Shown in pieces: positions 3,528-45,508 of a stretch of DNA of 45,508 bases. Every line of letters starts with the position of its first letter. Position 1 is the first letter of the stretch. Position numbers and translations under genes: made by a program. The stretch lies in contig JAHIRY010000040.1 in the NCBI GenBank assembly GCA_018818405.1, positions 1-45,508 of the forward strand. The letters are read 5' to 3'. Origin of the DNA: Patescibacteria group bacterium. GTDB lineage: Bacteria > Patescibacteriota > Patescibacteriia > UBA11705 > JABHMO01. The notes below the pieces were generated by a model. The model did not search any database. It saw only the letters and a program-made list of their open reading frames with translations, and was not told where the DNA came from.

Positions 3528-4280
3528 CTACTCGAGGAATAACAATAATGACATAACTCCGATTCCCAGAATAATAGCGGTCAACTGATAAATCGCTTTG
3601 CAGCCGGTGCATTCGCCTTTGTGCAATTCGGGAATCAGATCCGAGCCTGCAATGTAAATAAATCCGCCTCCGGCAATTGACAAAAGAATCAAGGAAAGTC
3701 CTTCGATATTTCCGGCCAGCAATAAGGTTAAAATCGCGCCGGCCATGGCGAAAATTCCGGAAATAAAGTTCCAAAATAATGCCTTGCCTCGGGAAAATCC
3801 GGAATAAAGCAAAACTCCGAAATCGCCTATTTCCTGAGGAATTTCATGAAAAATCACAGCCAAGGTTGTGGCGATTCCGAGCGGAACGCTGAACAAAAAA
3901 CTGCCGGCGATAATCATTCCATCGAGAAAATTATGAAAACCGTCGCCAACCAAAATCGTATAAGCCATTGGTTTCAGCTTGTGTTCACTGCAATTTCCTC
4001 CTTTGTGGCAATGATGCCAATGAATGATTTTTTCCACAATGAAAAAAAGTATTAAACCTAAAAGAAAATAAAAACCGGTCAGCGTGGTAAATTTTTCTTC
4101 TTCAACAATTTCCGGAAGAATGTGAATAAAAACATCGCCCAAAAGAGCGCCGACGGAAAAACTGACCAAATACAACAAAAGGTGCTGAAGTTTTTCATGC
4201 TTTATTCCCATGAATAAAACGCCGACCAGAGAAATAAAACTGACAATAGCAACTCCGGCAATCGTGTAAAACCAAATCAT
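3528..4280 (-). CDS. ZIP family metal (Zn) transporter
   Basis: GDGFHNFLDG and FHEIPQEIGDFG signature motifs, His-rich loop HWHHCH. Confidence 0.93.
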   Translation of the reverse strand: MIWFYTIAGVAIVSFISLVGVLFMGIKHEKLQHLLLYLVSFSVGALLGDVFIHILPEIVEEEKFTTLTGFYFLLGLILFFIVEKIIHWHHCHKGGNCSEHKLKPMAYTILVGDGFHNFLDGMIIAGSFLFSVPLGIATTLAVIFHEIPQEIGDFGVLLYSGFSRGKALFWNFISGIFAMAGAILTLLLAGNIEGLSLILLSIAGGGFIYIAGSDLIPELHKGECTGCKAIYQLTAIILGIGVMSLLLFLE

Positions 4281-4303
4281 AAATTAAATGTTTAAATTAT
4301 TTA

Positions 4304-6145
4304 TTACCGATATGAATCAACCAAATGCAAAGATTTCAAAACCGACCACTCTTTTGTTTTTTTCAATTCATCCATATTATCCAAATCCAAATCTTCCAGA
4401 ATATAACTGTCATCTATGTAAATTCCCAACGCCATTTTCAAGCTTTTTTGTTCCGACGCGGTTGTATGCGAATATAAAGATTTCAAGGCCGTAAAATCTT
4501 TTTTCGAGTCATCCTCCAGCAAATCAAAGAAAAATGCAAAATCAATGTCCTCGCAAATATCTTCTATAAAATAAGTATCTTTACCGCACATAGAGAGAAG
4601 AGCCTTCAACAGCATTGAATATTCTCTTGTTCTGTAGATATCGGTTAAACCCGCTTGCCTGCACTCGGCCGCAAGCTCGTAATGCAGATTTTCCGCTTTT
4701 TCCAGTATTGCGCTTTTCAATTCTTCGGTTAATAATTCCGGCCGTCTTTTCAAAAGCGCGACGCCGAATCTCAAATCATCCAAAGAAAGGAAATCTTGCA
4801 AATTATGCACGCATTCTTTTTCTTCAAACTCATGCAAATCATAAAACTCGCCCAAATATTTTGGAATGATTTTGTATTGAGTCGGGGGCAAAAAGAAAAA
4901 CAAAATTTCAACTTCTTTCCGAACTTCTTCGCCGACAGCCGATGCCGCCCGCGAAAGCCCCTCCATTGTTCGGACGGTTGAAACAAACTTTTCCTTTAGA
5001 TTTATTTCCAGCTTAGCCAAACATTCTTTGAGCGGCTGATCAGTGAAATCGCTTTCTTTCAGATACTCTATTTTCCATATGAGCTTTTGCATATGACTGC
5101 CGGCAGTGCTGAATGCGCCAGCCCTATTGTCAAAATCAAAAAGCCGATAAGCCGAAGCGCCGAAATTCCGTTCCTCCGCTTCTTCATAAGCGGCTACAAT
5201 TTCATTATGCAAGATATCAATATAATCATTCGCTCTGCCAATAAATCTCAACTGCCTCGCCGCCGAATCCTCCAGCATCCGCCGTTCTTCTCCCTCAAAA
5301 AAGCCGACTAATTCTCTCTTGTCTTGATAACTGGAGACTCTATGATTCAGTCTGTCCGCAGGAATAAACGCACCCAGATAACCATCATTAATATTGTGAA
5401 CATTTTCATGATTAATTGTCTTTTCTTCTTCAGCGGGAGTTGATGCTTTGATGAAATTGAAGGGCGTGTCCGTATAATGAATTCCTTGCGTTCGCCTGTC
5501 ATTTGCTGAAATTTTTCTTTCGAAAGCCGACGGCTTCATTACTATATTCAAGCTGAACGGCGATCTGCCAATGCGCTGAATGTCCTCGGCTTTTATTTCT
5601 TTTGGAATGCGAGGATACAGCAGTTTAATTTCATGAATAAGCGATTCCGGTTCTTCCGGTAAATTTCTGACAATATTATTTTTTTTCAATATAATTCCTA
5701 TCTGCCTGCGCATGAACGCCAAAAAATCAACAATTCCTTGCGGATCCAAAAGAGCTTCCATTTCTTTTTGTTTTTCCTCTTCTTTTTGTTGTTCCTCACG
5801 TCTTTCCGTTTCCTCATTCATCTCTTCAGATTCCCAGTCTGATTCATCATCTTCAGCGAATATCTTTTCCAGCTCAGCGGCAAGTTCTTCCTCTTGTTTT
5901 TGCCTATATTCCGCGTATATTCGCGCGCGCGCTACCAATTCGGGCGGAAATTTTTTTACGCTTTTATCCCAGATTTCCTCGACTTTTTCTTTTATCGCCG
6001 GATCATTCGGATCGAATTTTTCCGCCGCGCGAAAAAACTCTGCCGCGAATTGAACTTTTTTCCGCAGATTATTCAAAATTTCTCGGCGGCGTTCCGGCCA
6101 GATCGATTCCGGCTTCGGTTTCTGCGTCATTGTTTCTTTGACCAT
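4304..6145 (-). CDS. Hypothetical 613-aa protein with acidic stretch and HExxH motif
   Basis: Long ORF; HENVH motif; no family recognised. Confidence 0.75.
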   Translation of the reverse strand: MVKETMTQKPKPESIWPERRREILNNLRKKVQFAAEFFRAAEKFDPNDPAIKEKVEEIWDKSVKKFPPELVARARIYAEYRQKQEEELAAELEKIFAEDDESDWESEEMNEETERREEQQKEEEKQKEMEALLDPQGIVDFLAFMRRQIGIILKKNNIVRNLPEEPESLIHEIKLLYPRIPKEIKAEDIQRIGRSPFSLNIVMKPSAFERKISANDRRTQGIHYTDTPFNFIKASTPAEEEKTINHENVHNINDGYLGAFIPADRLNHRVSSYQDKRELVGFFEGEERRMLEDSAARQLRFIGRANDYIDILHNEIVAAYEEAEERNFGASAYRLFDFDNRAGAFSTAGSHMQKLIWKIEYLKESDFTDQPLKECLAKLEINLKEKFVSTVRTMEGLSRAASAVGEEVRKEVEILFFFLPPTQYKIIPKYLGEFYDLHEFEEKECVHNLQDFLSLDDLRFGVALLKRRPELLTEELKSAILEKAENLHYELAAECRQAGLTDIYRTREYSMLLKALLSMCGKDTYFIEDICEDIDFAFFFDLLEDDSKKDFTALKSLYSHTTASEQKSLKMALGIYIDDSYILEDLDLDNMDELKKTKEWSVLKSLHLVDSYR

Positions 6146-34465: not shown

Positions 34466-35278
34466 TCACAGCGGACTTTTTATATTTCGCAAAGCCATGT
34501 TGGTCAGATGCGTGTAAATTTGCGTTGTTCGGATATTTTGATGGCCGAGGAGTTCCTGCACATAGCGCACGTCCACTCCGTTTTCCAGGAGATGCGTGGC
34601 AAAGCTGTGGCGCAAAGAATGAAAAGTTGCTGATTTCCCAACTTTTGCTTTCTTCAATGCATTCTCAAAAATTTTCTGCGCGGTTCTCTCGGTCAATCTG
34701 CCGCCGCGCTCGCTTTCCAGTAAAAATTCATCAAAATCACGACAGCCAATCATTTTTATCAGGTCATCTTTCAGTTTTTCCGGAATTACTGAAATTCGAT
34801 CTTTTCCTCCTTTCGATTGTCTGATCGCAATTTGCAAATGAACGCAATCGATGTCTTTTATTTTTAATTTTACAATTTCCGAAACACGAAGTCCCGAGCC
34901 ATAAGCAAGCGCAATAAGCATCCGATGTTTATTATTTCTGATGGAAGCAAGAATTACGGCAATCTCTTCTCGAGAAAAAATTACGGGCAAGCGTTTCGGT
35001 TTGCGCGCATATTTCAAATTAATGCAAAACGGCGCTTTTACTATATTCTCATAAAAAAACTTGATTGCATTCAATCGCACATTAACGGTTTGACCGGAAA
35101 TGCCGCGTTCCAACAAACCCGCCAAATACTTTTTCGTCTTGTATTCATCGAATTTTTCAAAATCACAACCCAAATATCTGAAATAATCCTCAATACAACT
35201 CAAATAACTTTTCACAGTACTCCGGCTGTAATTTCGATACTTCAATTCAATTTCCATTTTCTCAATCCATTGTTGCAT
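34466..35278 (-). CDS. Tyrosine recombinase, IntI-like but lacking the IntI-specific insertion
   Basis: YSxxT..Y SAM-like N-domain, PKRLPV, GLRVSE, KGGKDR, HSLRHSFATHLL, LLGH, TQIYTH; only about 20 aa between the KDR strand region and the pre-HxLRH helix. Confidence 0.93.
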   Translation of the reverse strand: MQQWIEKMEIELKYRNYSRSTVKSYLSCIEDYFRYLGCDFEKFDEYKTKKYLAGLLERGISGQTVNVRLNAIKFFYENIVKAPFCINLKYARKPKRLPVIFSREEIAVILASIRNNKHRMLIALAYGSGLRVSEIVKLKIKDIDCVHLQIAIRQSKGGKDRISVIPEKLKDDLIKMIGCRDFDEFLLESERGGRLTERTAQKIFENALKKAKVGKSATFHSLRHSFATHLLENGVDVRYVQELLGHQNIRTTQIYTHLTNMALRNIKSPL

Positions 35279-35301
35279 AGAACCCCTCCCTTTGTTATAA
35301 T
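35273..35301 (+). promoter_or_regulatory. Pc-like cassette promoter overlapping the recombinase start codon and SD
   Basis: TTGCAT-N17-TATAAT with extended TG. Confidence 0.75.
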
Positions 35302-35313
35302 TATCTTAATCAA

Positions 35314-35322
35314 ATTATAACA
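35314..35322 (-). promoter_or_regulatory. Pint-like extended -10 promoter for the recombinase
   Basis: TGTTATAAT on the minus strand; SD GGGAGGGG before ATG. Confidence 0.6.
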
Positions 35323-35362
35323 TAAATCATAACACAATTCGTTTTAGCTACCAATTATTGCA

Positions 35363-35401
35363 TCTTATACGAAAACATTTCGCATAAGAACGAGTTATAT
35401 G
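35363..35401 (+). other. attI-like primary recombination site
   Basis: Hairpin TCTTATACGAAA-ACA-TTTCGCATAAGA, then ACGA and core GTTATATG; CGCATA box shared with attC right arms. Confidence 0.7.
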
Positions 35402-35622
35402 AAATACATGTTTTCCTTTTGGGGCTATCGCCCCAGCTCTTAAAAAGAATCCGATTTTGTTTTTCTTTTATTATAGAGGGGAAATATGGAGTTTTCTTCG
35501 CTACGCTACGAAAACATTTATTTTATAAGGGGAATAAGCGGTATTTCCTCCGCTTCGCTCCGGAAACGGTTTATTTATTAGGGGAAAACGAATACAATAA
35601 CATTTGTTAAAACATAATAACT

Positions 35623-38214
35623 ATGGCAAACGATAAAGAAGCAAAAGCGCGAATAAAAATTAATAAACTCCTTGAGGATTCAGGGTGGCGTTTTGATGAT
35701 TCTAAAAATGGAAAAGCCAACATCCAACTTGAGGCTGGCGTAAAATTCAATGAACTCGATGAAAATTTAGAAAACGCCGTAACCAGCGATGGTCGTCGCG
35801 GAGCAATTGATTTTCTCTTACTTGATAAAGACGGACGCGCGCTTGTCGTATTAGAAGCAAAAAAAGAATCAATTGATCCACTTTCCGCAAAAGAACAAGC
35901 TAGAAATTATGCACGCAACGTCAATGCACGTTTTGTAATTCTTTCAAACGGCAATATTCATTATTTTTGGGACACTAAACATGGCAATCCGGAAGTGATT
36001 TCTAGATTTCCTACCCAAGATTCAATTACTCAATTCGAAAAATGGGAACCAAATCCAAAAGAATTGGCCGAAACAAAAGTAGATGAAAATTATATTATTG
36101 AATCCCAAATGCCGGGATTTGCCAACGATCCAACTTTTCAAAATACCGACACACGAGGAGAATTTCTAAAAAACAACAATTTAAAACAACTCCGACCTTA
36201 TCAAGTAAACGCAATAAAAAGCCTTCAAACTTCGGCGCAATCAGGACAGAATCGCTTTTTGTTTGAAATGGCAACAGGCACAGGCAAAACCCTTATTTCC
36301 GCCGCCGTCATCAAGTTATTTCTCAAATCAGGCAATGCGCGCAGAGTTTTGTTTTTAGTAGATCGTCTTGAACTTGAAGATCAAGCATTTAAGGCATTTA
36401 GAAACTATTTGGGGCATGATTATGGAACTGTAATTTACAAAGATTCTCACGATTCTTGGCAGAACGCACAAATTGTCGTTTCCACAATTCAGACATTTCT
36501 TGCCGGAGACAGATACAAAAAAGATTTTTCGCCAACCGATTTTGAATTTGTTATTTCCGATGAAGCCCATCGTTCAATTGGAGGAAACAGTCGTGCCGTA
36601 TTTGAATATTTTGTCGGCTATAAATTGGGATTAACCGCTACTCCAAAAGATTATCTAAGAGGATTTGACGGAGAAAATGGCGACACTCAAAGAGAATTTG
36701 AAAGAAGGCAACTTCTCGATACTTACAAAACTTTTGGCTGTGAATCAGGCGAACCAACTTTTCGCTATGATCTTGTCGCCGGAGTAAATGATGGATTTTT
36801 GATCAATCCGATTGTGGTAGACGCACGGACAGAGATAACCACTGATTTGCTTTCCGACGAAGGATTGGCAGTTCACAAAACAAATGAAAATGGCGAATCA
36901 ACTGATGACATTTTCAACGAACGGCATTATGAGCGTAAATTTTTCAACGAGGAAACCAACATCGCCATGTGTAAGGCGTTTATGGATAATGCGCTTTTTG
37001 ATCCAATGGCAAAAAAACGAGGCATTGAATTGTTTGGCAAATCAATTGTTTTCTGTGTTTCTCAAAGGCATGCTGCCAAAATTACCAATATTCTCAACAA
37101 ACTAGCTTTTGAGAAATGGCCAGATCAATACAATGAATCAGATTTTGCCGTTCAAGTTACTTCTCTAGTACAAAACGCCCAGCAAATGACTATAAATTTT
37201 GCCAATAACATGCTTTCAGGCAAGGTACGACAACCCGAAGGCTATGATTCCAGTAAGACCAGAATTGCTGTAACTGTGGGGATGATGACTACTGGCTATG
37301 ATTGCCAGGATATTTTAAATCTTGCTTTGATGCGCCCTGTTTTTTCTCCGGCTGATTTTGTGCAAATCAAAGGGCGTGGCACTCGCAAATATACTTTTGA
37401 ATATGAAGATTATAATTCGGACGAAACTATCGCAGAACCAAAAGAACATTTTAAATTTTTCGATTTCTTTGCAACCTGCGAATACTTTGAAAATGAGTTT
37501 CCTTATGATGAAAAAATTAAACTCCCTGTAGTAAAACAAATTAAATCCGTTGAAGATATTGTTAAAAACCAAGCTAAACAAGGCGAGTTTGTCGATGAAA
37601 ACGGAAACAAAATTTTCAAAGGTCCAATTGACTTGGCAGAAAGCGACGAAGTGGCATCAATAACAGAAACACCGGTCGGAGTAGAAGGTATGCGAATTGA
37701 CCGCGAAGGATTCAAGAGAGCGGTAGAAGAAGATATACGCGGAAACGAAACCCTCAAAAACCTTTGGGAAAATGGCGATACTGAAGAAGCCGAAGATTTT
37801 GCTAAAAAACATGTACTTGATAAACCAAAATATTTTCTCAATCTTGATAAAATTCGTAAAATTTTCAATGTTGATCGTCGAATTAGCGTCAAAGAATTTT
37901 TGCAGGTTGCCTTTGGTGACAAAGATACCTTTGAAATGAAAGATGATTTATTGGAATCAGAATGGGATAAATTTCAAGAAGTAAATTTCAATAATCAGGA
38001 AATTGAAACAGAAAAATATCAAGCGATAAAAATGTTTTTCAAAGCGTATATCGTAGACGAAGAAGTCCGCGATATTATTAAACGAAACCAGCCGGCGGAC
38101 TTTTATCACTGTGCTTCATTTGATTTTTCCGAATATCAAAGACTAAATGGCTTTAAAGAACTCGTGCCAAGATACATCAAAGATTATGTATCACTTAATA
38201 CTTTTATGAATTAG
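35623..38214 (+). CDS. hsdR: Type I restriction enzyme R subunit
   Basis: D...EAK nuclease motif, ATGTGKT, DEAHRS, LTATP, MMTTGYD, QIKGRGTR. Confidence 0.93.
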   Translation: MANDKEAKARIKINKLLEDSGWRFDDSKNGKANIQLEAGVKFNELDENLENAVTSDGRRGAIDFLLLDKDGRALVVLEAKKESIDPLSAKEQARNYARNVNARFVILSNGNIHYFWDTKHGNPEVISRFPTQDSITQFEKWEPNPKELAETKVDENYIIESQMPGFANDPTFQNTDTRGEFLKNNNLKQLRPYQVNAIKSLQTSAQSGQNRFLFEMATGTGKTLISAAVIKLFLKSGNARRVLFLVDRLELEDQAFKAFRNYLGHDYGTVIYKDSHDSWQNAQIVVSTIQTFLAGDRYKKDFSPTDFEFVISDEAHRSIGGNSRAVFEYFVGYKLGLTATPKDYLRGFDGENGDTQREFERRQLLDTYKTFGCESGEPTFRYDLVAGVNDGFLINPIVVDARTEITTDLLSDEGLAVHKTNENGESTDDIFNERHYERKFFNEETNIAMCKAFMDNALFDPMAKKRGIELFGKSIVFCVSQRHAAKITNILNKLAFEKWPDQYNESDFAVQVTSLVQNAQQMTINFANNMLSGKVRQPEGYDSSKTRIAVTVGMMTTGYDCQDILNLALMRPVFSPADFVQIKGRGTRKYTFEYEDYNSDETIAEPKEHFKFFDFFATCEYFENEFPYDEKIKLPVVKQIKSVEDIVKNQAKQGEFVDENGNKIFKGPIDLAESDEVASITETPVGVEGMRIDREGFKRAVEEDIRGNETLKNLWENGDTEEAEDFAKKHVLDKPKYFLNLDKIRKIFNVDRRISVKEFLQVAFGDKDTFEMKDDLLESEWDKFQEVNFNNQEIETEKYQAIKMFFKAYIVDEEVRDIIKRNQPADFYHCASFDFSEYQRLNGFKELVPRYIKDYVSLNTFMN

Positions 38215-38216
38215 AC

Positions 38217-38474
38217 ATGTCTAAAAATAAAAAAAAACAAACAATCGGATTTTGGGATAAGGGAAAAGAAACAACACTTATTAATTGTTCTAGCGAAGGT
38301 TTTGATATTGGCCTAAAGTCAGAGGGTGAAGGGCTACTGGCTAAAAATTTTAAATCGCTAGGTAATACTACAAATTCTGATTGGTATGAAAAATGGTGGA
38401 TGAAATATATTATTTTTCCTCTTGCTGTACTAATCATTGGAGCTTTTGTTATTTTTTATATTGGATTAAATTAA
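38217..38474 (+). CDS. Small protein with C-terminal TM helix within the R-M operon
   Basis: 85 aa; 2 nt after hsdR stop and 4 nt before hsdM start; WWMKYIIFPLAVLIIGAFVIFYIG. Confidence 0.7.
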   Translation: MSKNKKKQTIGFWDKGKETTLINCSSEGFDIGLKSEGEGLLAKNFKSLGNTTNSDWYEKWWMKYIIFPLAVLIIGAFVIFYIGLN

Positions 38475-38478
38475 AACT

Positions 38479-40980
38479 ATGCTTACATCAGAAACAAAAC
38501 GACATATTGATGCGGCTAGGCAAGTCCTCGTGGGCGTAGTGCCAAACCCAACATCACAAATTGATCAGATTACCAACGCGCTGATCTATAAATTTATGGA
38601 TGACATGGATCAATCGGCTATAAAAGCCGGTGGCTCACCATCTTTTTTTACTGATGATTTGGAAAGATATGCTTGGACACGCCTGATGGATAGCAGACTT
38701 GGCAATCAAGAAAGAATGAATCTGTATTCAGAAGCTCTGATTAAATTTTCGCAAGCTAAACAATTACCCGAACTTTTTAGAAATATTTTTAAATCCGCAT
38801 TTTTGCCATATCGCTCACCGGAAGTTTTAGGATTATTTTTAAAAGAAATAAATTATTTTGATTATTCTCACCCAGAAGATTTGGGCGATGGCTATGAATA
38901 TTTGCTTTCAATCATGTCCTCTCAAGGCGATGCAGGACAATTCCGCACCCCTCGCCATATTATTGATTTTATCGTTGATGCTATCAACCCGACAAAAGAC
39001 GACAAAGTACTTGATCCTGCTTGCGGAACAGGTGGATTCTTGGTCAGCTCATACAAGCATATATTAGAACAACACGACGGCAAAAATGATCCGGAAAAGA
39101 AAGAAAAACCGCTCACCCCAGATGACAGAAGAAAACTTTTTCAAAACTTTGAAGGATATGATATCGATCCAGGCATGGTGCGAATTGCGCAGGTCAATAT
39201 GTATCTGCATCAATTCAAAAATCCGAAAATTTTTCAATACGACACTTTGGGAATGGATGAACGCTGGAATGACAAGTTTGATGTAATACTCGCCAATCCG
39301 CCGTTTATGTCGCCAAAAGGTGGTGTTCGTCCGCATAGTAAATTTAGCGTGCAGTCGAGCCGATCAGAGGTTTTGTTTGTGGACTACATCATGAACCACT
39401 TGAAACCCAAAGGCCGAGCAGGTGTAATCGTACCAGAAGGAATTATTTTTCAATCAGGAAGTGCGCACAAACAACTTCGCAAAAACCTCGTCAATGACGG
39501 GCTGTATGCAGTCGTGAGCTTGCCAAGTGGAGTGTTTCAGCCATACAGCGGTGTAAAAACCAGTATTTTGCTTTTTGATAATGAACAAGCGAAGCAACGA
39601 AGTGAGGTTTTGTTTGTAAAAGTGGAAAATGACGGCTTTGATCCGGGCGCAACAAAAAGACCTATTAGCAAAAACGATTTGCCGACTGCTTTGGATATTT
39701 TAGACAAATGGAAAACTGGCGAGAAAGTGGAAAGCAAGTTGGCGGTTTATGTAGAAAAATCCAAAATTGCTGAAAACGGAGACTACAATCTTTCCGGTGA
39801 TCGCTATCGTGTAGCAACAGATTACAGCAATGCAAAATGGCCGATGGTGGAGTTGGGAGAGGTTTCAGAAATATTAAACGGCTACGCTTTCAAGAGTGAA
39901 AAATACACAAACAATGGTATTCGAGTTATTCGAATTACAAATGTACAAAAAGGTAAAATTGTTGATGATGATCCTAAGTTTTACTCTGAAGATTCAATTA
40001 ACGAAATTGGGAAATTTTTACTCGCTAAAAGTGATCTTTTGATTTCTCTCACTGGTAATGTCGGTAGAGTTGGATTGTTACAATCTGACTTATTGCCAGC
40101 CGGACTGAATCAACGAGTTGGTTGTATTCGTCTAAATGACAGCAAACAAGTTTCAATCAGTTATCTTTTTCATGTATTGAATACAGAATTATTTGAAGAT
40201 GATTGTATAAGAGCTTCAAGTGGTGTTGCACAGAAAAATTTAAGTACAGAATGGTTGAAAAAATATCAAATTCCTGTCCCACCTCTCGAAATTCAAGAGC
40301 AAATTGTGGCCGAGTTGGACGGCTACGCAGGCATAATCTCCGGCGCCAAACAAATCTCCCAAAATTGGAAACCAAAAATTGACATCGATCCGGAGTGGGA
40401 GAAAGTGAAGCTGGGGGAAATTGCAACGCTTGTTCAAGGTATAAATACTGCGGTGGATAAGCTTCACTATATTGAAGATGGTATAAAGGTTTTGCAAGCA
40501 AATAATATTTATCAAGGATCTGTGAATTTTGATAATTTAAAATTTATAACTGCAAAAGAATTTTCAGCGATTAACACAAAATACAAACCCACGAAAGAAG
40601 ATGTTTTATATTCAAATATCGGTGCTAGATTTGGGTATGCTTCAACTATAGATTTTGATGATAAATTTACATTTTCCTGGAATGTTATGAGAATGGTTAT
40701 TTTAGATAAATCAAAACTAGACAAATTTTATCTAAAAAATATTCTTAATTCTGATTTACTTCGACAGGTTGTGCTAAGTCAAGCATCAACAAGTACGATG
40801 CCATTTATATCTGGAAAAGATTTGAAGGCAATCGAAATCCCTCTTCCACCTCTCGTTATTCAAAAGCAAATCGTGAAAAAAATCGAGGCCGAGCGCACGC
40901 TGGTGGAATCTGCCAAAAAGTTGATTGATATTTACGAAGAAAAAACAAAAGAAACGATTTCTAAACTGTGGAATGAATAA
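38479..40980 (+). CDS. hsdM-hsdS: Fused type I methyltransferase-specificity subunit (HsdM-HsdS)
   Basis: GQFRTP, DPACGTGG, NPPF (m6A); two target recognition domains closed by PPLEIQEQIV and PPLVIQKQIV. Confidence 0.92.
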   Translation: MLTSETKRHIDAARQVLVGVVPNPTSQIDQITNALIYKFMDDMDQSAIKAGGSPSFFTDDLERYAWTRLMDSRLGNQERMNLYSEALIKFSQAKQLPELFRNIFKSAFLPYRSPEVLGLFLKEINYFDYSHPEDLGDGYEYLLSIMSSQGDAGQFRTPRHIIDFIVDAINPTKDDKVLDPACGTGGFLVSSYKHILEQHDGKNDPEKKEKPLTPDDRRKLFQNFEGYDIDPGMVRIAQVNMYLHQFKNPKIFQYDTLGMDERWNDKFDVILANPPFMSPKGGVRPHSKFSVQSSRSEVLFVDYIMNHLKPKGRAGVIVPEGIIFQSGSAHKQLRKNLVNDGLYAVVSLPSGVFQPYSGVKTSILLFDNEQAKQRSEVLFVKVENDGFDPGATKRPISKNDLPTALDILDKWKTGEKVESKLAVYVEKSKIAENGDYNLSGDRYRVATDYSNAKWPMVELGEVSEILNGYAFKSEKYTNNGIRVIRITNVQKGKIVDDDPKFYSEDSINEIGKFLLAKSDLLISLTGNVGRVGLLQSDLLPAGLNQRVGCIRLNDSKQVSISYLFHVLNTELFEDDCIRASSGVAQKNLSTEWLKKYQIPVPPLEIQEQIVAELDGYAGIISGAKQISQNWKPKIDIDPEWEKVKLGEIATLVQGINTAVDKLHYIEDGIKVLQANNIYQGSVNFDNLKFITAKEFSAINTKYKPTKEDVLYSNIGARFGYASTIDFDDKFTFSWNVMRMVILDKSKLDKFYLKNILNSDLLRQVVLSQASTSTMPFISGKDLKAIEIPLPPLVIQKQIVKKIEAERTLVESAKKLIDIYEEKTKETISKLWNE

Positions 40981-40987
40981 ATAAATT

Positions 40988-42781
40988 ATGCCTCATATAA
41001 TCAAGCACAATTTACTGAAAAAAACTCTCGACGAAATCGCAGAGACTGCGCCGGATCATCTGACGATTTACCATCCGGACGAGAGCGATCAAGATGGCCA
41101 AATTCACAAATATTCTCGGACACAAATCCACCTTTTTTTAAGAGTCCATTTTGGATTATTAGACTTTAATATTGCCGAAGATCAGATTACTGACGGCACA
41201 GATGACGGTGGTCTGGATGCGTATCATATTGACGCAGAAAAGAAAACTATCTATCTTATACAATCAAAATATAAAACTACCCCGGAAGGATACCTTAACA
41301 ATGATGTCGATTGGCGCGAATTCTTTAAAATGGAGCTAGATCGTATTGTCCAAGGCGAAACGGCCTCGTCATCAGGTCACCAATATAATGGAAAAATAAG
41401 AGGTCTCCAACAAAAAATTGGAGAAATTGCTGATATAGCACGGTGGAACTATACACTGATATATTTAGGAAATGTCCCTTCTGCTATTACAAAAGAAAGG
41501 TTGTTAACTGTCAGCGGTGGAGTTTGCACAAACACAGAGATACTACACGGAAACGATTTCTATAACCAAGTTTTAATCCCATATCTTAAGCGTGACTTTT
41601 ACGACAAAGAAGACTTCTCCTTTGAGATATACATCAATCAAGAACGATCAGCAAATCGTATCAGATATTCCGTTGATTTAGCTGATGGCGAATCTGCGGA
41701 GGTCCAGCTTTGTTTTGTCCCAACAATGGAAATAGCAAGGATGATGTCGCAATACAGAAATTCGATTTTACAATACAATCCACGTTGTTATGTAGGTATC
41801 AAAAATACCGGTGTTAATGCTGACATCAGAGACTCAGTTTCTAACACGGCACATAATGAATTTTCATTACTTAACAATGGCATTACCGTTGTCTGCAATG
41901 AGGTAAATTACAACGATAATACTGCGCAACGAGGAAGAGCTTCAATTACTGTATCTAATCCACAGATAGTAAATGGCGGTCAAACAGCGTTTACTTTAGC
42001 ACATCTATTTGAGAATAATTCTGACAATTCAATTTTTGACGGAAAAGAAGTTCTCACAAAATTTATAATTATTGTAGGCAATCGAGATGAAATGATAGAA
42101 AAAATATCTAATGCTACCAATAATCAAAATCCAATAAGGCCAAGGGATAAAGCCTCAAATGATCTAAAAATGATTCAATTGCAGTCGGGCCTCTTTGATC
42201 AATATGGCGTTCTACTCGAAAGAAAGCAGGGAGAATTTTATGACTCGATAAAAGAGGGTCTTATAGACAAAAAAAATGTAATAGACAGCGTTATTCTTAT
42301 GCGTCTTTTGCTTGTATATCGTGGTTCAGTTGCAAGAGCAAGAAGTGCTGGAGAGGGTGTGCTTTTTAGAGATTACAACCTTGACGGAGTTGAAGTTAGC
42401 GAAATTTATAAGCTCATTCGAATTTACAATAAAATCTCTAATCTCGACCAACCTAGTGAAAGAGATGGACGAAAACGTTACCAAATTAATATCTGGGGTA
42501 ATGGACTTAGATACGGTCAATGGGCTATTATATATGCAGTTTATCAATTATCTAAATCCGGTGAAAATCTTAATGATTGTTTGAATCGTGTTCAATCACG
42601 ATGGATAGATTTCGAAACTACTGTTGCAAATCATGAACATAATCAAAGTTATTCTTCTGACGGCTTCGATTATGCAAACTATTATAAAGGAAGTACCATT
42701 GATCGAGATTTAAATGAATATATCCCTAATATAGGAGAATTAGTAGAATCAAAAACCGATGTGGAAATTCCGAAGATATAA
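40988..42781 (+). CDS. AIPR family (abortive infection phage resistance) protein
   Basis: DGTDDGGLDA...IQSKY nuclease-like N-terminus; NPRCYVG, LLNNGIT, PQIVNGGQT, ATNNQN. Confidence 0.88.
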   Translation: MPHIIKHNLLKKTLDEIAETAPDHLTIYHPDESDQDGQIHKYSRTQIHLFLRVHFGLLDFNIAEDQITDGTDDGGLDAYHIDAEKKTIYLIQSKYKTTPEGYLNNDVDWREFFKMELDRIVQGETASSSGHQYNGKIRGLQQKIGEIADIARWNYTLIYLGNVPSAITKERLLTVSGGVCTNTEILHGNDFYNQVLIPYLKRDFYDKEDFSFEIYINQERSANRIRYSVDLADGESAEVQLCFVPTMEIARMMSQYRNSILQYNPRCYVGIKNTGVNADIRDSVSNTAHNEFSLLNNGITVVCNEVNYNDNTAQRGRASITVSNPQIVNGGQTAFTLAHLFENNSDNSIFDGKEVLTKFIIIVGNRDEMIEKISNATNNQNPIRPRDKASNDLKMIQLQSGLFDQYGVLLERKQGEFYDSIKEGLIDKKNVIDSVILMRLLLVYRGSVARARSAGEGVLFRDYNLDGVEVSEIYKLIRIYNKISNLDQPSERDGRKRYQINIWGNGLRYGQWAIIYAVYQLSKSGENLNDCLNRVQSRWIDFETTVANHEHNQSYSSDGFDYANYYKGSTIDRDLNEYIPNIGELVESKTDVEIPKI

Positions 42782-42977
42782 AATAATAGTGTGTTTTCGG
42801 TCGGGGCAATTCACCCCTTTTCTTCCCCTCTTGCCCCTCCCTCAAACAGAAATAGGAGTTTTGGGCTTCGGGCATTCACCCCTAACCCCTCTGCCCTTCG
42901 CCCAAAACAGAAAAACAAAATCAGATTCTTTTTAAGAGCGATTTGCTATCGCAAATCAAAAGGAAAACATGTACATC

Positions 42978-43104
42978 ATATAACACTGCGTATGCGGTTA
43001 CGGCTTGCTCCGTACCTCCGCAAGCCTACACCCATATTTGCCAGTGGTAAGCACTTCGTGCAATTATACCACTGGCAAACATCGCATACGCAGGAACGTT
43101 AGCT
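42978..43104 (+). other. attC-like site 1 (127 bp)
   Basis: ATATAAC...GTTAGCT; arms CTGCGTATGCG/CGCATACGCAG. Confidence 0.85.
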
Positions 43105-43123
43105 GAAATTTTAAAATTTATTT

Positions 43124-43837
43124 ATGCCTGAAAAATATAATAATCCGTCGCCCCCAGAAAAAGAAAGTGGATTTTATAGCGACATCGTTCGGCGGTATGA
43201 AACAGAAGTAAATCGCTTTGTTCCAGGTTATGCTGAGGAAATTGTTCCTCTCGTAACTGGTGAAGTAATCAGAAAAGCTCATAACGGAGCTGTTTTAGAC
43301 CTTGGCTCTGGCGTAGGGAATGTAGATGAAATCATTATAGATCAAGCAAACCCTCAATCCATTGACTTAGTTGAAATTTTAGAGCCAATGATTGAAGAAT
43401 CTAAAAAGCGATTGGAAGATAAAAATTCCACCATTCGTTTTCATGAGATGTCCGCTGAAGATTTTGAAGCCGAACCAAATAGTTTTAATGCAGTACTGTC
43501 AAACCTTGTTATTCACAATATCCCTTATGAAGACAAAGTTAGACTTATAAGCAATATTCATAAGTGGCTTAAAGATGGTGGAATTTTTATCTGGACTGAT
43601 CTTGTGAGCTTTTCTGATACCGCCGAACTCGAAAGATGTTTTGAAGAGCGTAAAAAAATAGCCATTTCGATGGGGGCGACTGAGGAATTCGCAGAAGAGA
43701 ATTTTAAAAAGGAACGAGAAGAAGATAATATGATTACCGTTGAACAAATGACTGAAATGCTACAACAAGCTGGTTTTCAAAATATTGAAATTCTCTGGAC
43801 TCGGTACAATGAAGTGGTCATGCGAGCAACGAAATAA
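43124..43837 (+). CDS. Class I SAM-dependent methyltransferase (loosely CmoA-like), cassette 2
   Basis: VLDLGSGVG motif I, NLVIHN, LKDGGIF. Confidence 0.85.
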   Translation: MPEKYNNPSPPEKESGFYSDIVRRYETEVNRFVPGYAEEIVPLVTGEVIRKAHNGAVLDLGSGVGNVDEIIIDQANPQSIDLVEILEPMIEESKKRLEDKNSTIRFHEMSAEDFEAEPNSFNAVLSNLVIHNIPYEDKVRLISNIHKWLKDGGIFIWTDLVSFSDTAELERCFEERKKIAISMGATEEFAEENFKKEREEDNMITVEQMTEMLQQAGFQNIEILWTRYNEVVMRATK

Positions 43838-43850
43838 ATTTTAAAACATC

Positions 43851-43926
43851 AGCTAACATTGAATATCTGGTTCCGCTTCGCTCCACCCAAATTGCTCGCA
43901 ACTTCAGATATCCAGAAACGTTGTAC
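43851..43926 (+). other. attC-like site 2 (76 bp)
   Basis: AGCTAAC...GTTGTAC; arms TTGAATATCTG/CAGATATCCAG. Confidence 0.85.
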
Positions 43927-44174
43927 GAAATTCCAACTAGTAAACGAGGTAGATTGAAAGTTTGTGCAAACAAAAAAGCACGTCTTAAAAACGAACTTTT
44001 AACTGATTACCCGTCGGAACTGTCGTACAACACCGAGTATGCGGTTGCGTGAAGAAGAAATTATTGATTTTTCTTTTCATTTTAAATCTGGCTCTTTTCA
44101 ATTTTTTCTATCAGAAAGTGAAGCGCCCTGCCCGAGATGTCTCGAACAGGGCGTGATCTATGACATGAAGGAAG

Positions 44175-44549
44175 CTACGGACCCTCGAACATGATCCGCC
44201 TGCCAACCGCCCGATTGTATGCGCTGTCCTCTCCCGTCAAATCCTTTGACGTATTGTTACCCATTGCGAAAATGGTTGCGAACAGATCTGACACCATCGG
44301 GCGATCAATGCTGTCAAGTGCCAGAAGCGCTGTAAACACTGAACTGACTGGATCAGAACTCCCTGTTGCATTGTCGAGGTTGTGAGTCGAGAACTCTCTG
44401 TGAGACACCACGTATCCACCATCAGGGTTATAGCTCTTGAGCCACGCTTCCCTGTCTTTGATGAAAAGTGCTGCATCATCACCACTCAGAAGATGCCAAG
44501 AGGTTGCCAGTTCGGCACCCTCAGCGACACGCACGAAAACATGCTTCAT
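44175..44549 (-). CDS. Hypothetical 124-aa protein inside attC3, antisense to the array
   Basis: AGGAGG SD 7 nt before ATG; own promoter; hairpin 44124-44153 after the stop. Confidence 0.7.
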   Translation of the reverse strand: MKHVFVRVAEGAELATSWHLLSGDDAALFIKDREAWLKSYNPDGGYVVSHREFSTHNLDNATGSSDPVSSVFTALLALDSIDRPMVSDLFATIFAMGNNTSKDLTGEDSAYNRAVGRRIMFEGP

Positions 44550-44589
44550 GTTTTACCCTCCTAAATTCGTCGCGGAATTGCGACTTCAT

Positions 44590-44619
44590 ATATTAGCAGA
44601 TCCACACCCCACCTGTCAA
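44590..44619 (-). promoter_or_regulatory. Promoter of the attC-embedded gene
   Basis: TTGACA-N18-TAATAT with extended TG. Confidence 0.65.
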
Positions 44620-44879
44620 GCCAACGAGGGACGAAAAAATTGAAAAGAGCCCTAAATTAAGGAAAAAAATCAATAATTTCTTCTTCACTCCACCCAAATC
44701 CCGCTCTTGAAATTGAGGGTTTTAAGGGGTAAAATAGGTTGGTGTTGAAGCGAAAGTTTGTACTAAAAACGAAGGGCGGGACTTCGCATACTCGGGGACG
44801 TTAAACGTAATCAGTAAAGTGGCTATAAAGTGGAAGTCGTTCCGATAACTTTTTTAATTAGTATCATTTTTTAATTAAC

Positions 44880-45506
44880 ATGACTCAAATCGTAGAAACT
44901 TGCAAATTCGTTGTTGATAATTCTCAACACGTAAAAATAAACTTGGAAAAGGTTGATGAGTTTGTCAATTATTTTAGTCATTCCCATATCAAACATTGGT
45001 TTAATGAATCGCCCTTTAATATTAGAAATTTAGCCCCCAAAGAAAGATTGCATTTTTTATTGGTGTTTAATTCGATTAGTTTTTCTTATTGGGGAGATCC
45101 AAAATGGAGAATTAATTATCATTCCAAAGAAATAGATGGAGCCTATGGAATGATTGGAGCAATTGGCAGAGCAATTGAAAATAAGACTCCCATTTTGGAT
45201 GCAAAATTTCTTTCTGAGATTAAAGAAGAAGAGTTTAGTAAAATTTTAGAAGGAACTGTTCAAATTCCTCTTTTTGAAGATAGATTAAATATTTTGCGAG
45301 AAATTGGAACAATCCTCTTGGAAAAATTTGAAGGCGATTTTACTAACCTCATCAATCAAGCCAATGGCGATTCACAAAAATTATTGAGTTTGATAATTGA
45401 GAATTTTCCTTCTTTTAATGACTCCTCAATTTACAATGGAAGACAAGTTTATTTTTACAAGCGTGCACAACTTTTAGTTGCTGATGTTGTGCAAGCTTTC
45501 AACGGA
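44880..45506 (+). CDS. Queuosine salvage protein (Qng1/DUF2419 family), partial, cassette 4
   Basis: Not in ORF track; manual translation MTQIVETCKFVVDNSQHVKIN...FNSISFSYWG...IPLFEDR...FPSFNDSSIYNGRQVYFYKRAQLLVAD. Confidence 0.85.
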   Translation, partial: MTQIVETCKFVVDNSQHVKINLEKVDEFVNYFSHSHIKHWFNESPFNIRNLAPKERLHFLLVFNSISFSYWGDPKWRINYHSKEIDGAYGMIGAIGRAIENKTPILDAKFLSEIKEEEFSKILEGTVQIPLFEDRLNILREIGTILLEKFEGDFTNLINQANGDSQKLLSLIIENFPSFNDSSIYNGRQVYFYKRAQLLVADVVQAFNG

Positions 45507-45508
45507 CA

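Follow-up and report, generated by a model that had tools for sequence, protein, structure and literature searches.

How does a complete, multi-gene defence system come to lie in an array of small gene cassettes in the tiny genome of an ultra-small bacterium? The question is raised by a 45,508-nt stretch of DNA (hereafter the window) from a Patescibacteria group bacterium (GenBank assembly GCA_018818405.1, contig JAHIRY010000040.1), which is the whole of a 45.5-kb contig, C16, in a 1.06-Mb, 48-contig genome with a completeness rating of 100%. The threonyl-tRNA synthetase encoded by this genome has its nearest matches (59-62%) in MAGs labelled Candidatus Paceibacterota, Patescibacteria group and Moraniibacteriota, in keeping with a CPR/Patescibacteria bacterium. 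Here, an hsdR gene, a small open reading frame (ORF), a fused hsdM-hsdS gene and an AIPR gene form a block at positions 35395-43098, immediately behind a tyrosine recombinase gene and its putative docking site. A preliminary description of the sequence had proposed that the block is a single integron cassette carrying a switchable anti-phage load. Our analysis makes it probable that a single cassette of an integron-like platform makes up the block, that it was inserted whole at an attI-type site and that it is built on a conserved sequence frame for multi-gene cargo. This reading is built on the observed anatomy of the block, its matched ends, the absence of inner sites, the recurrence of the frame and the identities of the cargos that the frame holds.

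We examined the block by ORF listing, by scans with hidden Markov models (HMMs) and by inspection of its sequence ends. All three agreed with the preliminary description: four genes lie between an attI-type junction and a folded attC-type site, the ends match and the length is 7704 bp (Table 1). The HsdR, HsdM and HsdS functions of a type I restriction-modification (R-M) system were all matched in Pfam, NCBIfam and PADLOC, with none of the hsdR, hsdM or hsdS matches reaching an NCBIfam equivalog cutoff, and the hsdM-S fusion joins a methylase to two target-recognition domains. These matches predict an active R-M system. The fourth gene scored above the gathering threshold of the AIPR family PF10592, and no family match was found in the HMM scans for the 85-aa ORF. 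A PADLOC run returned type I restriction, methyltransferase and specificity subunits together with AbiU, consistent with the earlier proposal that the load is anti-phage. The gaps among the four genes are 2, 4 and 7 nt.

Table 1 Features of the recombinase, docking site and first two cassettes in the window
Feature	Position	Strand	Details
Tyrosine recombinase, 270 aa, IntI-like without the IntI-specific insertion	34466..35278	-	Pfam Phage_integrase 2.9e-40
Promoter-like element facing the array	35273..35301	+	TTGCAT, 17 nt, TATAAT with TG extension; read from sequence, predicted function
attI-type docking site	35365..35396	+	TATACGAAAACATTTCGCATAAGAACGA|GTT; 34 nt identical on contig C5, 93% identical on contig C1
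Cassette leader, 229 nt	35394..35622	+	R' box GTTATAT; left inverted repeat 35394-35469 with hairpin A 35421-35434
Leader modules	B1 35491-35515; B2 ~35540-35569; TTTATT 35570-35575; TACAAT 35593-35598	+	B1 and B2 hairpin/T-rich; TTTATT and TACAAT promoter-like
hsdR, type I restriction subunit	35623..38214	+	ResIII 1.2e-39; HSDR_N/HSDR_N_2; PADLOC REase_I 7.8e-58
85-aa ORF	38217..38474	+	Translation with C-terminal hydrophobic, transmembrane-like helix
Fused hsdM-hsdS, 833 aa	38479..40980	+	N6_Mtase 1.6e-57; two Methylase_S stretches; PADLOC MTase_I 2.2e-99, Specificity_I 1e-50
AIPR/AbiU-like abortive-infection gene	40988..42781	+	PF10592 114.7 bits (cutoff 25); PADLOC AbiU 2.2e-25
Cassette trailer, ~200 nt	42782..42984	+	Two hairpin modules ~42793-42905; right inverted repeat 42906-42984; hairpin A' 42941-42956; R'' box ATATAAC 42978-42984
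attC1	42978..43104	+	AAC-A, 11-bp arm, two inner hairpins around CACCCATAT, complementary arm, GAAC, GTT
Cassette 2 (SAM methyltransferase) with attC2	43099..43926	+	Ends GTTAGCT / AGCTAAC match

The left boundary of the block reads ...CGCATAAGAACGA|GTTATATG (...AACGA|GTT), with the G at 35394. On the right, ATATAAC opens attC1, and this site ends GAAC-GTTAGCT with the exchange G at 43098. The R' box GTTATAT pairs with the R'' box ATATAAC, and the match runs on into an inverted repeat of ~75 nt whose two copies, 7.5 kb apart, are complementary over 28 nt at 93% and over 34 nt at 94%. A small hairpin breaks each copy, GGGGC-TATC-GCCCC in the left one and ATTTGC-TATC-GCAAAT in the right one. Three more units follow downstream, with ends GTTAGCT/AGCTAAC, GTTGTAC/GTACAAC and then GTTAAAC. 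Such agreement is a real signature of cassette units: in related arrays, 20 of 45 adjacent site pairs matched at all four variable positions of the R' and R'' boxes, as against 6.6% of random pairings (p ~1e-12). What these complementary boxes preserve of exchange at G|TT is a footprint only, and the recombinase would be the enzyme that acts there. Together, these results bear out the proposal that the block is one cassette unit in the first position of the array.

The same proposal held that no attC-like site is hidden inside the block, and we searched for one in several ways. A first covariance model was built from six sites with a hand-set structure and a second from 23 model-aligned sites of relatives; an initial MAFFT alignment of nine sites had placed the short ones wrongly, and the model was rebuilt, and a hand-made hairpin finder permitting G-T pairs was too noisy, with attC1 alone standing out. 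Run across the whole window with filters off, the two covariance models found only attC1 (67.5 and 64.9 bits) and attC2, and their best matches inside the block reached 10.9 and 9.6 bits (E = 4.6 and 9.2). Two scans for complementary arms inside the block, made at any distance because one site of the array (44025-44806) holds a gene inside, gave nothing at 10/11 or better, and the intergenic gaps leave no room for an inner site.

The sites themselves have the features of folded attC-type sites. Across the 23 attC-type sites, the 11-bp arms are 96% paired, eight of the 11 arm pairs have changed on both sides and the AAC/GTT cores are invariant, so that imperfect palindromes are kept in structure rather than in sequence. 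Covariation scored 0.574, against 0.115 in shuffles and at most 0.076 with partners slid, in an alignment that was fitted to the model and so favours pairing. In classical integrons, extrahelical bases of the folded attC set strand choice; the spacers of the sites here are asymmetric, with 1 nt after AAC and 3-4 nt before GTT. The site at 44025-44806 has counterparts at C1:2035-2716 and C23:7619-8329 of the same genome: in all three, perfectly complementary 11-bp arms lie 680-780 bp apart and enclose a small antisense gene with its own flanking inverted repeats, the gene on C1 differing from that in the window.

We then asked what kind of platform holds the block. The docking site lies beside, and divergent from, the recombinase gene and carries a predicted outward promoter-like element; a similar element, TTGTTATAAT, lies upstream of the attI copy on contig C1. 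The conserved junction, ...AAAC(G/C)A|GTT, is 116 nt from the recombinase start codon and is also found in the related genomes G023, G017, G022 and G202. Two extra copies of the site, at C5:719-752 and C1:2809-2851 (the latter aligned over 43 nt), have cassettes behind them and no adjoining recombinase. Copies of the attI sequence with cassettes behind and no recombinase beside them were also seen at locus L052 (G202:C1, near 108.7 kb) and at loci L162-L164 and L167; in G202 and four metagenome contigs, a tRNA gene stands directly upstream of the site. On C5, a 0.6-kb cassette (GTTATGTG...CACATAAC) precedes a 96.8%-identical copy (125 nt) of the start of the methyltransferase cassette. As this start lies behind attC1 in the window and behind a different cassette on C5, units have been exchanged exactly at G|TT. 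Of 41 related genomes, 38 encode homologues of the short recombinase, many of them located at the end of a contig. Arrays with the same type of site were found in 23 of the 26 genomes of the order, where the median attC-to-attC spacing is 999 bp and 55 of 61 spacings fall below 4 kb. In the literature searched, we found no description of such arrays in Patescibacteria.

The recombinase is not a standard integron integrase. Its best-scoring model was the integron-integrase family TIGR02249, at 223.8 bits in two stretches and below the cutoff of 265, and it is nearly as close to archaeal XerA (NF040815, 213.5 bits, cutoff 220). The best match in the PDB was VchIntIA (2a3v), in a two-piece alignment that skips chain residues ~203-239, which are the IntI-specific insertion; the additional domain of IntI-type integrases is thus missing from a protein of 270 aa, compared with ~320. 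A separate Xer homologue of ~320 aa is encoded elsewhere in the genome. The integron label of the preliminary description therefore needs to be divided. It holds for the attI site, the attC sites and the G|TT boundaries, and does not extend to the integrase or to the usual small promoterless cassettes, the first cassette here having 7704 bp, four genes and a promoter-like leader element in place of ~0.5-1 kb and mostly one ORF. Because the recombinase lacks the IntI insertion, we describe the platform as integron-like rather than as a formal integron, and treat the rules of classical integrons as analogies.

Between its boxes and its genes, the cassette carries a conserved frame, consisting of a leader and a trailer that mirrors it (inverted repeats I2 and I5). 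BLAST found the leader in 81 of the 401 sampled genomes of the class, spread over 78 genera, and related trailers occur in C1, C39 and C33 and in the genomes G017, G022 and G032. Alignment of 21-27 leaders gave a constant order. GTT and a variable box of 4 nt come first, followed by GAAAT, a T-rich stretch and hairpin A (GGGCTATCGCCC); after these come AGAGGGGA, hairpin B (GTTTTC...GAAAAC, whose loops are like those of the attC inner hairpins) and GATTTATTTATAAGGGGAAAACGAA-TACAAT. The leader in the window carries two hairpin-B modules. The leader hairpins are 94% paired, with four pairs changed on both sides, which is modest support. Conservation stops a few nucleotides past TACAAT or TATAAT, even where the preceding sequence differs, and TTTATT-17-TACAAT looks like a promoter whose start point would coincide with the joint between frame and cargo. 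When both ends of the cassette were scanned for promoters and terminators by simple methods, neither leader nor trailer scored above shuffles, so this promoter-like box rests on its conservation and not on a promoter scan. Rfam searches of 35200-45508 at E up to 1 returned only sub-threshold chance matches, none of them for the leader. We found no description of a leader/trailer frame with long inverted-repeat ends for integron cassettes in the literature searched. In many cassette genes, a hairpin module, AAGGAGTTTTGG...GGGCATTCACCCC...CCCCTCTGCCC...CAAAAC, begins within a few nucleotides of the stop codon; copies of it are scattered over the genome (window 42793-42905, C1:1-100, C3:246-275, C33:35470-35512, C39:19596-19660 and C48 near 38430), and several contigs break in it.

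The frame also bears on the weight that the preliminary description had given to the first position, as the most recently filled and best expressed. Only five of 27 leaders abut an attI-type junction and ~20 abut an attC, so the first position is not special to frame cassettes, which stand at position 2 and later elsewhere. As the leader ends in its own promoter-like element, expression of the first cassette may be independent of the array promoter. We find no ground for attaching special importance to this position.

The same frame encloses quite different genes in other genomes. In G202, a one-contig genome of another family, a leader 97% identical over 206 nt, with the same GTTATATG / CATATAAC boxes, and a trailer and attC together 79% identical over 338 nt enclose an EcoRI-type methylase, a GmrSD/HNH enzyme and two unknown genes. 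A 7.6-kb frame cassette at array position 2 of G017 holds RadC-Dam, Dam, an AlwI endonuclease, SIR2 and HerA. The first cassette of G022, 8.8 kb long, has eight biosynthetic genes including a paralogue of arginyl-tRNA synthetase, and a frame cassette of G032 (~7.4 kb) has seven genes, among them a carbamoyltransferase and a dehydroquinate-synthase-like enzyme. In the source genome, other frames hold a second type I R-M system (C23) and an SDR gene with a radical-SAM gene (C1). The G022 cassette (L023 10205-19016, in G022:C2, minus strand) encodes two radical-SAM enzymes, an SDR, a GFO oxidoreductase, a cytidylyltransferase and the synthetase paralogue, whose presence in a biosynthetic operon suggests an aminoacyl-tRNA-dependent product. 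Across frame cargos, DNA methylases predominate (14 matches, four families), alongside ResIII helicase-nucleases, GmrSD, HpaII and SMC/AAA_21 ATPases, and biosynthetic cargos are a minority. From leader to next attC, the 26 leader-bearing cassettes span a median of 3.97 kb (range 1.2-10.3 kb, these being upper bounds wherever a site was missed), against the 999-bp median of all attC spacings, and 23 of the 26 have at least two ORFs. Spans with matched boxes measure 10.3, 7.6, 5.5, 4.2 and 4.0 kb. The layout of the window, an attI-type site followed directly by a frame cassette, recurs in G022, G082, G080 and G202.

To see where the defence genes come from, we compared them with their relatives. 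All 11 other contigs that encode AIPR or hsdMS proteins 75-85% identical to those of the window keep the order hsdR-hsdMS-AIPR, and the closest relatives of the cargo show 81-82% nucleotide identity. In these eleven contigs the flanks are unrelated, and no leader, trailer or attC was found. The three-gene module thus occurs outside arrays, in nine to eleven other contigs. Identical flanks outside any array, which the preliminary description had named as evidence against a single cassette, were not found in these contigs. AIPR (E <= 1e-60) was found in one of the 401 genomes of the class, the source genome itself. From these unrelated flanks and this isolated occurrence we conclude that the cargo is a sporadic, horizontally moving defence module loaded into the frame. 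Between hsdR and hsdMS, the content of the module varies: this slot is filled by the 85-aa ORF here and by a 178-aa ORF or an NYN gene elsewhere (L046, L047), and empty in most copies. One relative, with an 84% identical AIPR, is on a Logan contig (SRR22000184, L042) that translates correctly only with TGA read as Trp, where genes for ArdC and Toprim adjoin the module. The boundary between genetic codes is therefore one that the module crosses, the probable vehicle being a plasmid or phage.

In the mechanism that we propose, the short IntI-related tyrosine recombinase would recombine attI with folded attC-type sites by strand exchange at G|TT, so that the unit TTATAT...attC1-G would enter attI as a whole. 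The frame would make its cargo a self-expressed, insulated unit, its promoter and insulator roles being predictions from the conserved boxes and hairpins, and in an excised circle it would lengthen the recombination hairpin to a stem of ~90 bp. The predicted fold of this circle, with the attC end joined to the leader, is a continuous ~90-bp stem with a four-way junction at -91 and -98 kcal/mol (DNA parameters); it follows from the repeats and is an illustration rather than a test. The joint of an empty site would read attI|GTTAGCTG (attI|GTTAGCTGAAATTTT) and that of a circle ...GCAGGAAC-G|TTATATGAAAT (...CGCATACGCAGGAAC-G|TTATATGAAATACATG). A scan of metagenome contigs with 28 nt of attI returned only contigs of the sample itself and a single other organism, in which the site follows a tRNA gene, and no empty-site variant. 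We also considered a wider and more doubtful scheme, in which Patescibacteria would possess a dedicated class of 'operon-vector' cassettes: the frame would supply a promoter and hairpin insulators, the 75-nt repeats would form a ~90-bp hairpin or cruciform, an Xer-like integrase without the insertion would capture and excise units of 4-10 kb, sizes at which classical integron capture fails, and exchange of cargo within the frame would trade whole defence systems between distant ultra-small bacteria.

Several observations weigh against insertion of the block as one unit. The recombinase is without the domain by which IntI reads folded attC sites. No frame or array surrounds the closest relatives of the cargo, so that the latter may have come by another route into a frame that already existed. 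Neither an empty site, a circle junction nor a second copy was found in the assembly or the metagenome contig scan. A simple sigma-70 scan did not flag the leader promoter, and the boxes of the first cassette in G022 agree only partly (GTTGATC vs AGCTAAC). For the integron of Vibrio cholerae, a preprint reports that recovery falls with cassette size, R = -0.54, and that a cassette whose attC sites were 4 kb apart escaped recovery (10.64898/2026.03.17.712381). The 7.7-kb block is well above this size of roughly 4 kb, beyond which classical integron cassettes are reported not to move. The earlier claim that this system can mobilise whole operons consequently stands in part: the platform does carry operons as single cassettes, and the present-day mobility of the 7.7-kb cassette, for which the empty site, circle and second copy were not found, is presumptive.

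The strongest alternative is that the cargo was swapped within a resident frame, with leader and trailer serving homologous recombination in which the R-M/AIPR module took the place of an earlier cargo, perhaps once foreign DNA bearing the same frame had been taken up. The 7.7-kb unit need then never have met the recombinase and may be too large for excision. Leaders are 77-97% identical across families around unrelated cargos and would offer ready homology arms; leader and trailer have diverged unequally between the source genome (G000) and G202 (97% vs 79%); and both the frameless nearest relatives and the drop of classical integron capture with cassette size fit this account. It still requires a donor in which the module was already framed, and none was found. 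The R' and R'' boxes of the cassette agree, and large matched-box cassettes stand at varied array positions, as movement of whole units predicts. We regard a swap as possible but rather unlikely, and it and whole-unit insertion are not mutually exclusive.

A second alternative takes leader and trailer as the ends of an independent element, like a transposon or a miniature inverted-repeat transposable element (MITE), that targets GTT in attI and attC, carries passenger genes and has no relation to cassette recombination. Long terminal repeats (~75 nt) that are conserved across genera around variable cargo would suit such an element. However, no transposase domain was found in the 88 cargo ORFs of 26 frame cassettes, and no target-site duplication at the cassette ends, and on these two grounds we rejected a transposon or MITE identity. 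The 4 nt after GTT also vary (ATAT, ATGT, AGCT) and pair with the R'' box of the same cassette, as in small cassettes, and every copy has its own attC with covarying arms behind it, which leaves this explanation very improbable.

It is still harder to credit that the block is several cassettes, fused or split by decayed or undetected attC sites. The leader hairpins do resemble attC inner hairpins (CCGCTACGCT loops), and with the weak match at 35438-35528 (10.9 bits) they would suit the view that a cassette lacking an ORF was fused to the cargo long ago; in relatives, the boxes of 25 of 45 adjacent attC pairs do not match, which means that a site is now and then overlooked. Against this stand the 2-, 4- and 7-nt gene gaps, the lack of any 10/11 arm pair at any distance, the conservation of the hsdR-hsdMS-AIPR order as a unit in more than 10 unrelated contexts and the agreement of the outer ends over 75 nt. 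With covariance models and arm scans negative inside the block, we rejected hidden sites. Equally slight is the chance that assembly wrongly joined the recombinase/attI region to the R-M cassette through repeated attI or leader sequence. The attI site, leaders and trailers are indeed repeated in the genome and contigs C1, C5, C23 and C39 break in them, but the identical attI repeat of just 34 nt and the other leaders, 70-77% identical, are too short or too diverged to cause a wrong join, and the same layout recurs in G022, G082, G080 and G202.

Insertion as a whole cassette thus being the reading that we prefer, the block can be set beside known systems. As in integrons such as that of V. cholerae, a divergent tyrosine recombinase lies by a docking site, the array is co-oriented, and units end in a folded AAC...GTT imperfect palindrome with covarying arms and are bounded at G|TT with complementary R'/R'' boxes. 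The platform differs in its recombinase without the IntI insertion, a three-part site fold whose CACCCAAAT linker is conserved, extra attI copies that have no recombinase, a four-gene cassette of 7.7 kb and the leader/trailer frame with long inverted repeats. Among Xer/XerA recombinases and dif-type sites, the enzyme here has the size and domain layout of XerA, and instead of acting at a single chromosomal dif site it lies beside a cassette array. In the prr locus, PrrC lies inside hsd, making a type I R-M system with an embedded abortive-infection partner. The module here likewise links R, M and S functions to a second-line suicide or abortive gene, with the differences that M and S are fused, the partner is of AIPR/AbiU type and not an anticodon nuclease, and a variable slot lies between hsdR and hsdMS.

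Defence cargo as such is familiar in integrons, whose cassettes are generally regarded as small and mostly single-gene. Classical integron cassettes also bear anti-phage genes (bioRxiv 10.1101/2024.07.02.601719), and Sucellos, Ogmios and Divona are named as defence cassettes of the V. cholerae array (10.64898/2026.03.17.712381). Like these and the BRiC cassettes of mobile integrons, the arrays here stockpile defence genes as cassettes, and two-gene cassettes are known. Those cassettes have one or two genes, whereas in the window one cassette holds an abortive-infection gene together with a full type I R-M system, and one cassette likewise holds the five-gene R-M and SIR2-HerA set of G017. The block works like an integron cassette and its cargo, a type I R-M system with an Abi gene, is ordinary; the conserved frame with its long inverted repeats is the added feature.

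A platform in genomes of ~1 Mb on which each complete defence system or biosynthetic operon forms one bounded unit of 4-10 kb would, if the units move, broaden the functions that cassettes can capture from single genes to whole operons. If this is true, it would explain how whole defence systems are exchanged among tiny genomes without large defence islands. The frame, present in about one-fifth of the sampled genomes of the class, offers a handle for finding such cassettes in metagenomes and for testing how cargo is loaded and expressed. A recombinase without the IntI insertion bears on the origin of integrons and on the need for that insertion. Integron-finding software groups attC sites with a default distance limit of ~4 kb; it would split such arrays and would leave the integrase uncalled.

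Other features of the arrays are recorded here. An ORF-less cassette of ~100 bp (GTTGTACGAAATTCC...GGAACTGTCGTACAAC) lies at 43926-44025 of the window, at C1:2660-2820 and at C30:4341-4459, 81-90% conserved in three arrays of the same genome. The last visible cassette in the window (44880-45506) encodes a queuosine-salvage protein (Q_salvage, PF10343) and runs off the contig end. An insertion-sequence-like element with the common end ...GGGAATAAAATCCCAACACGACGCTTCGCGGATC...TTATTATACGAAC was seen on C23 (~4030-5200, minus strand) and C33 (~35040-35330). IS110/IS1111 elements, which target attC sites, offer a parallel: the element adjoins attC-type sites on both contigs, and on C33 it seems to interrupt one.

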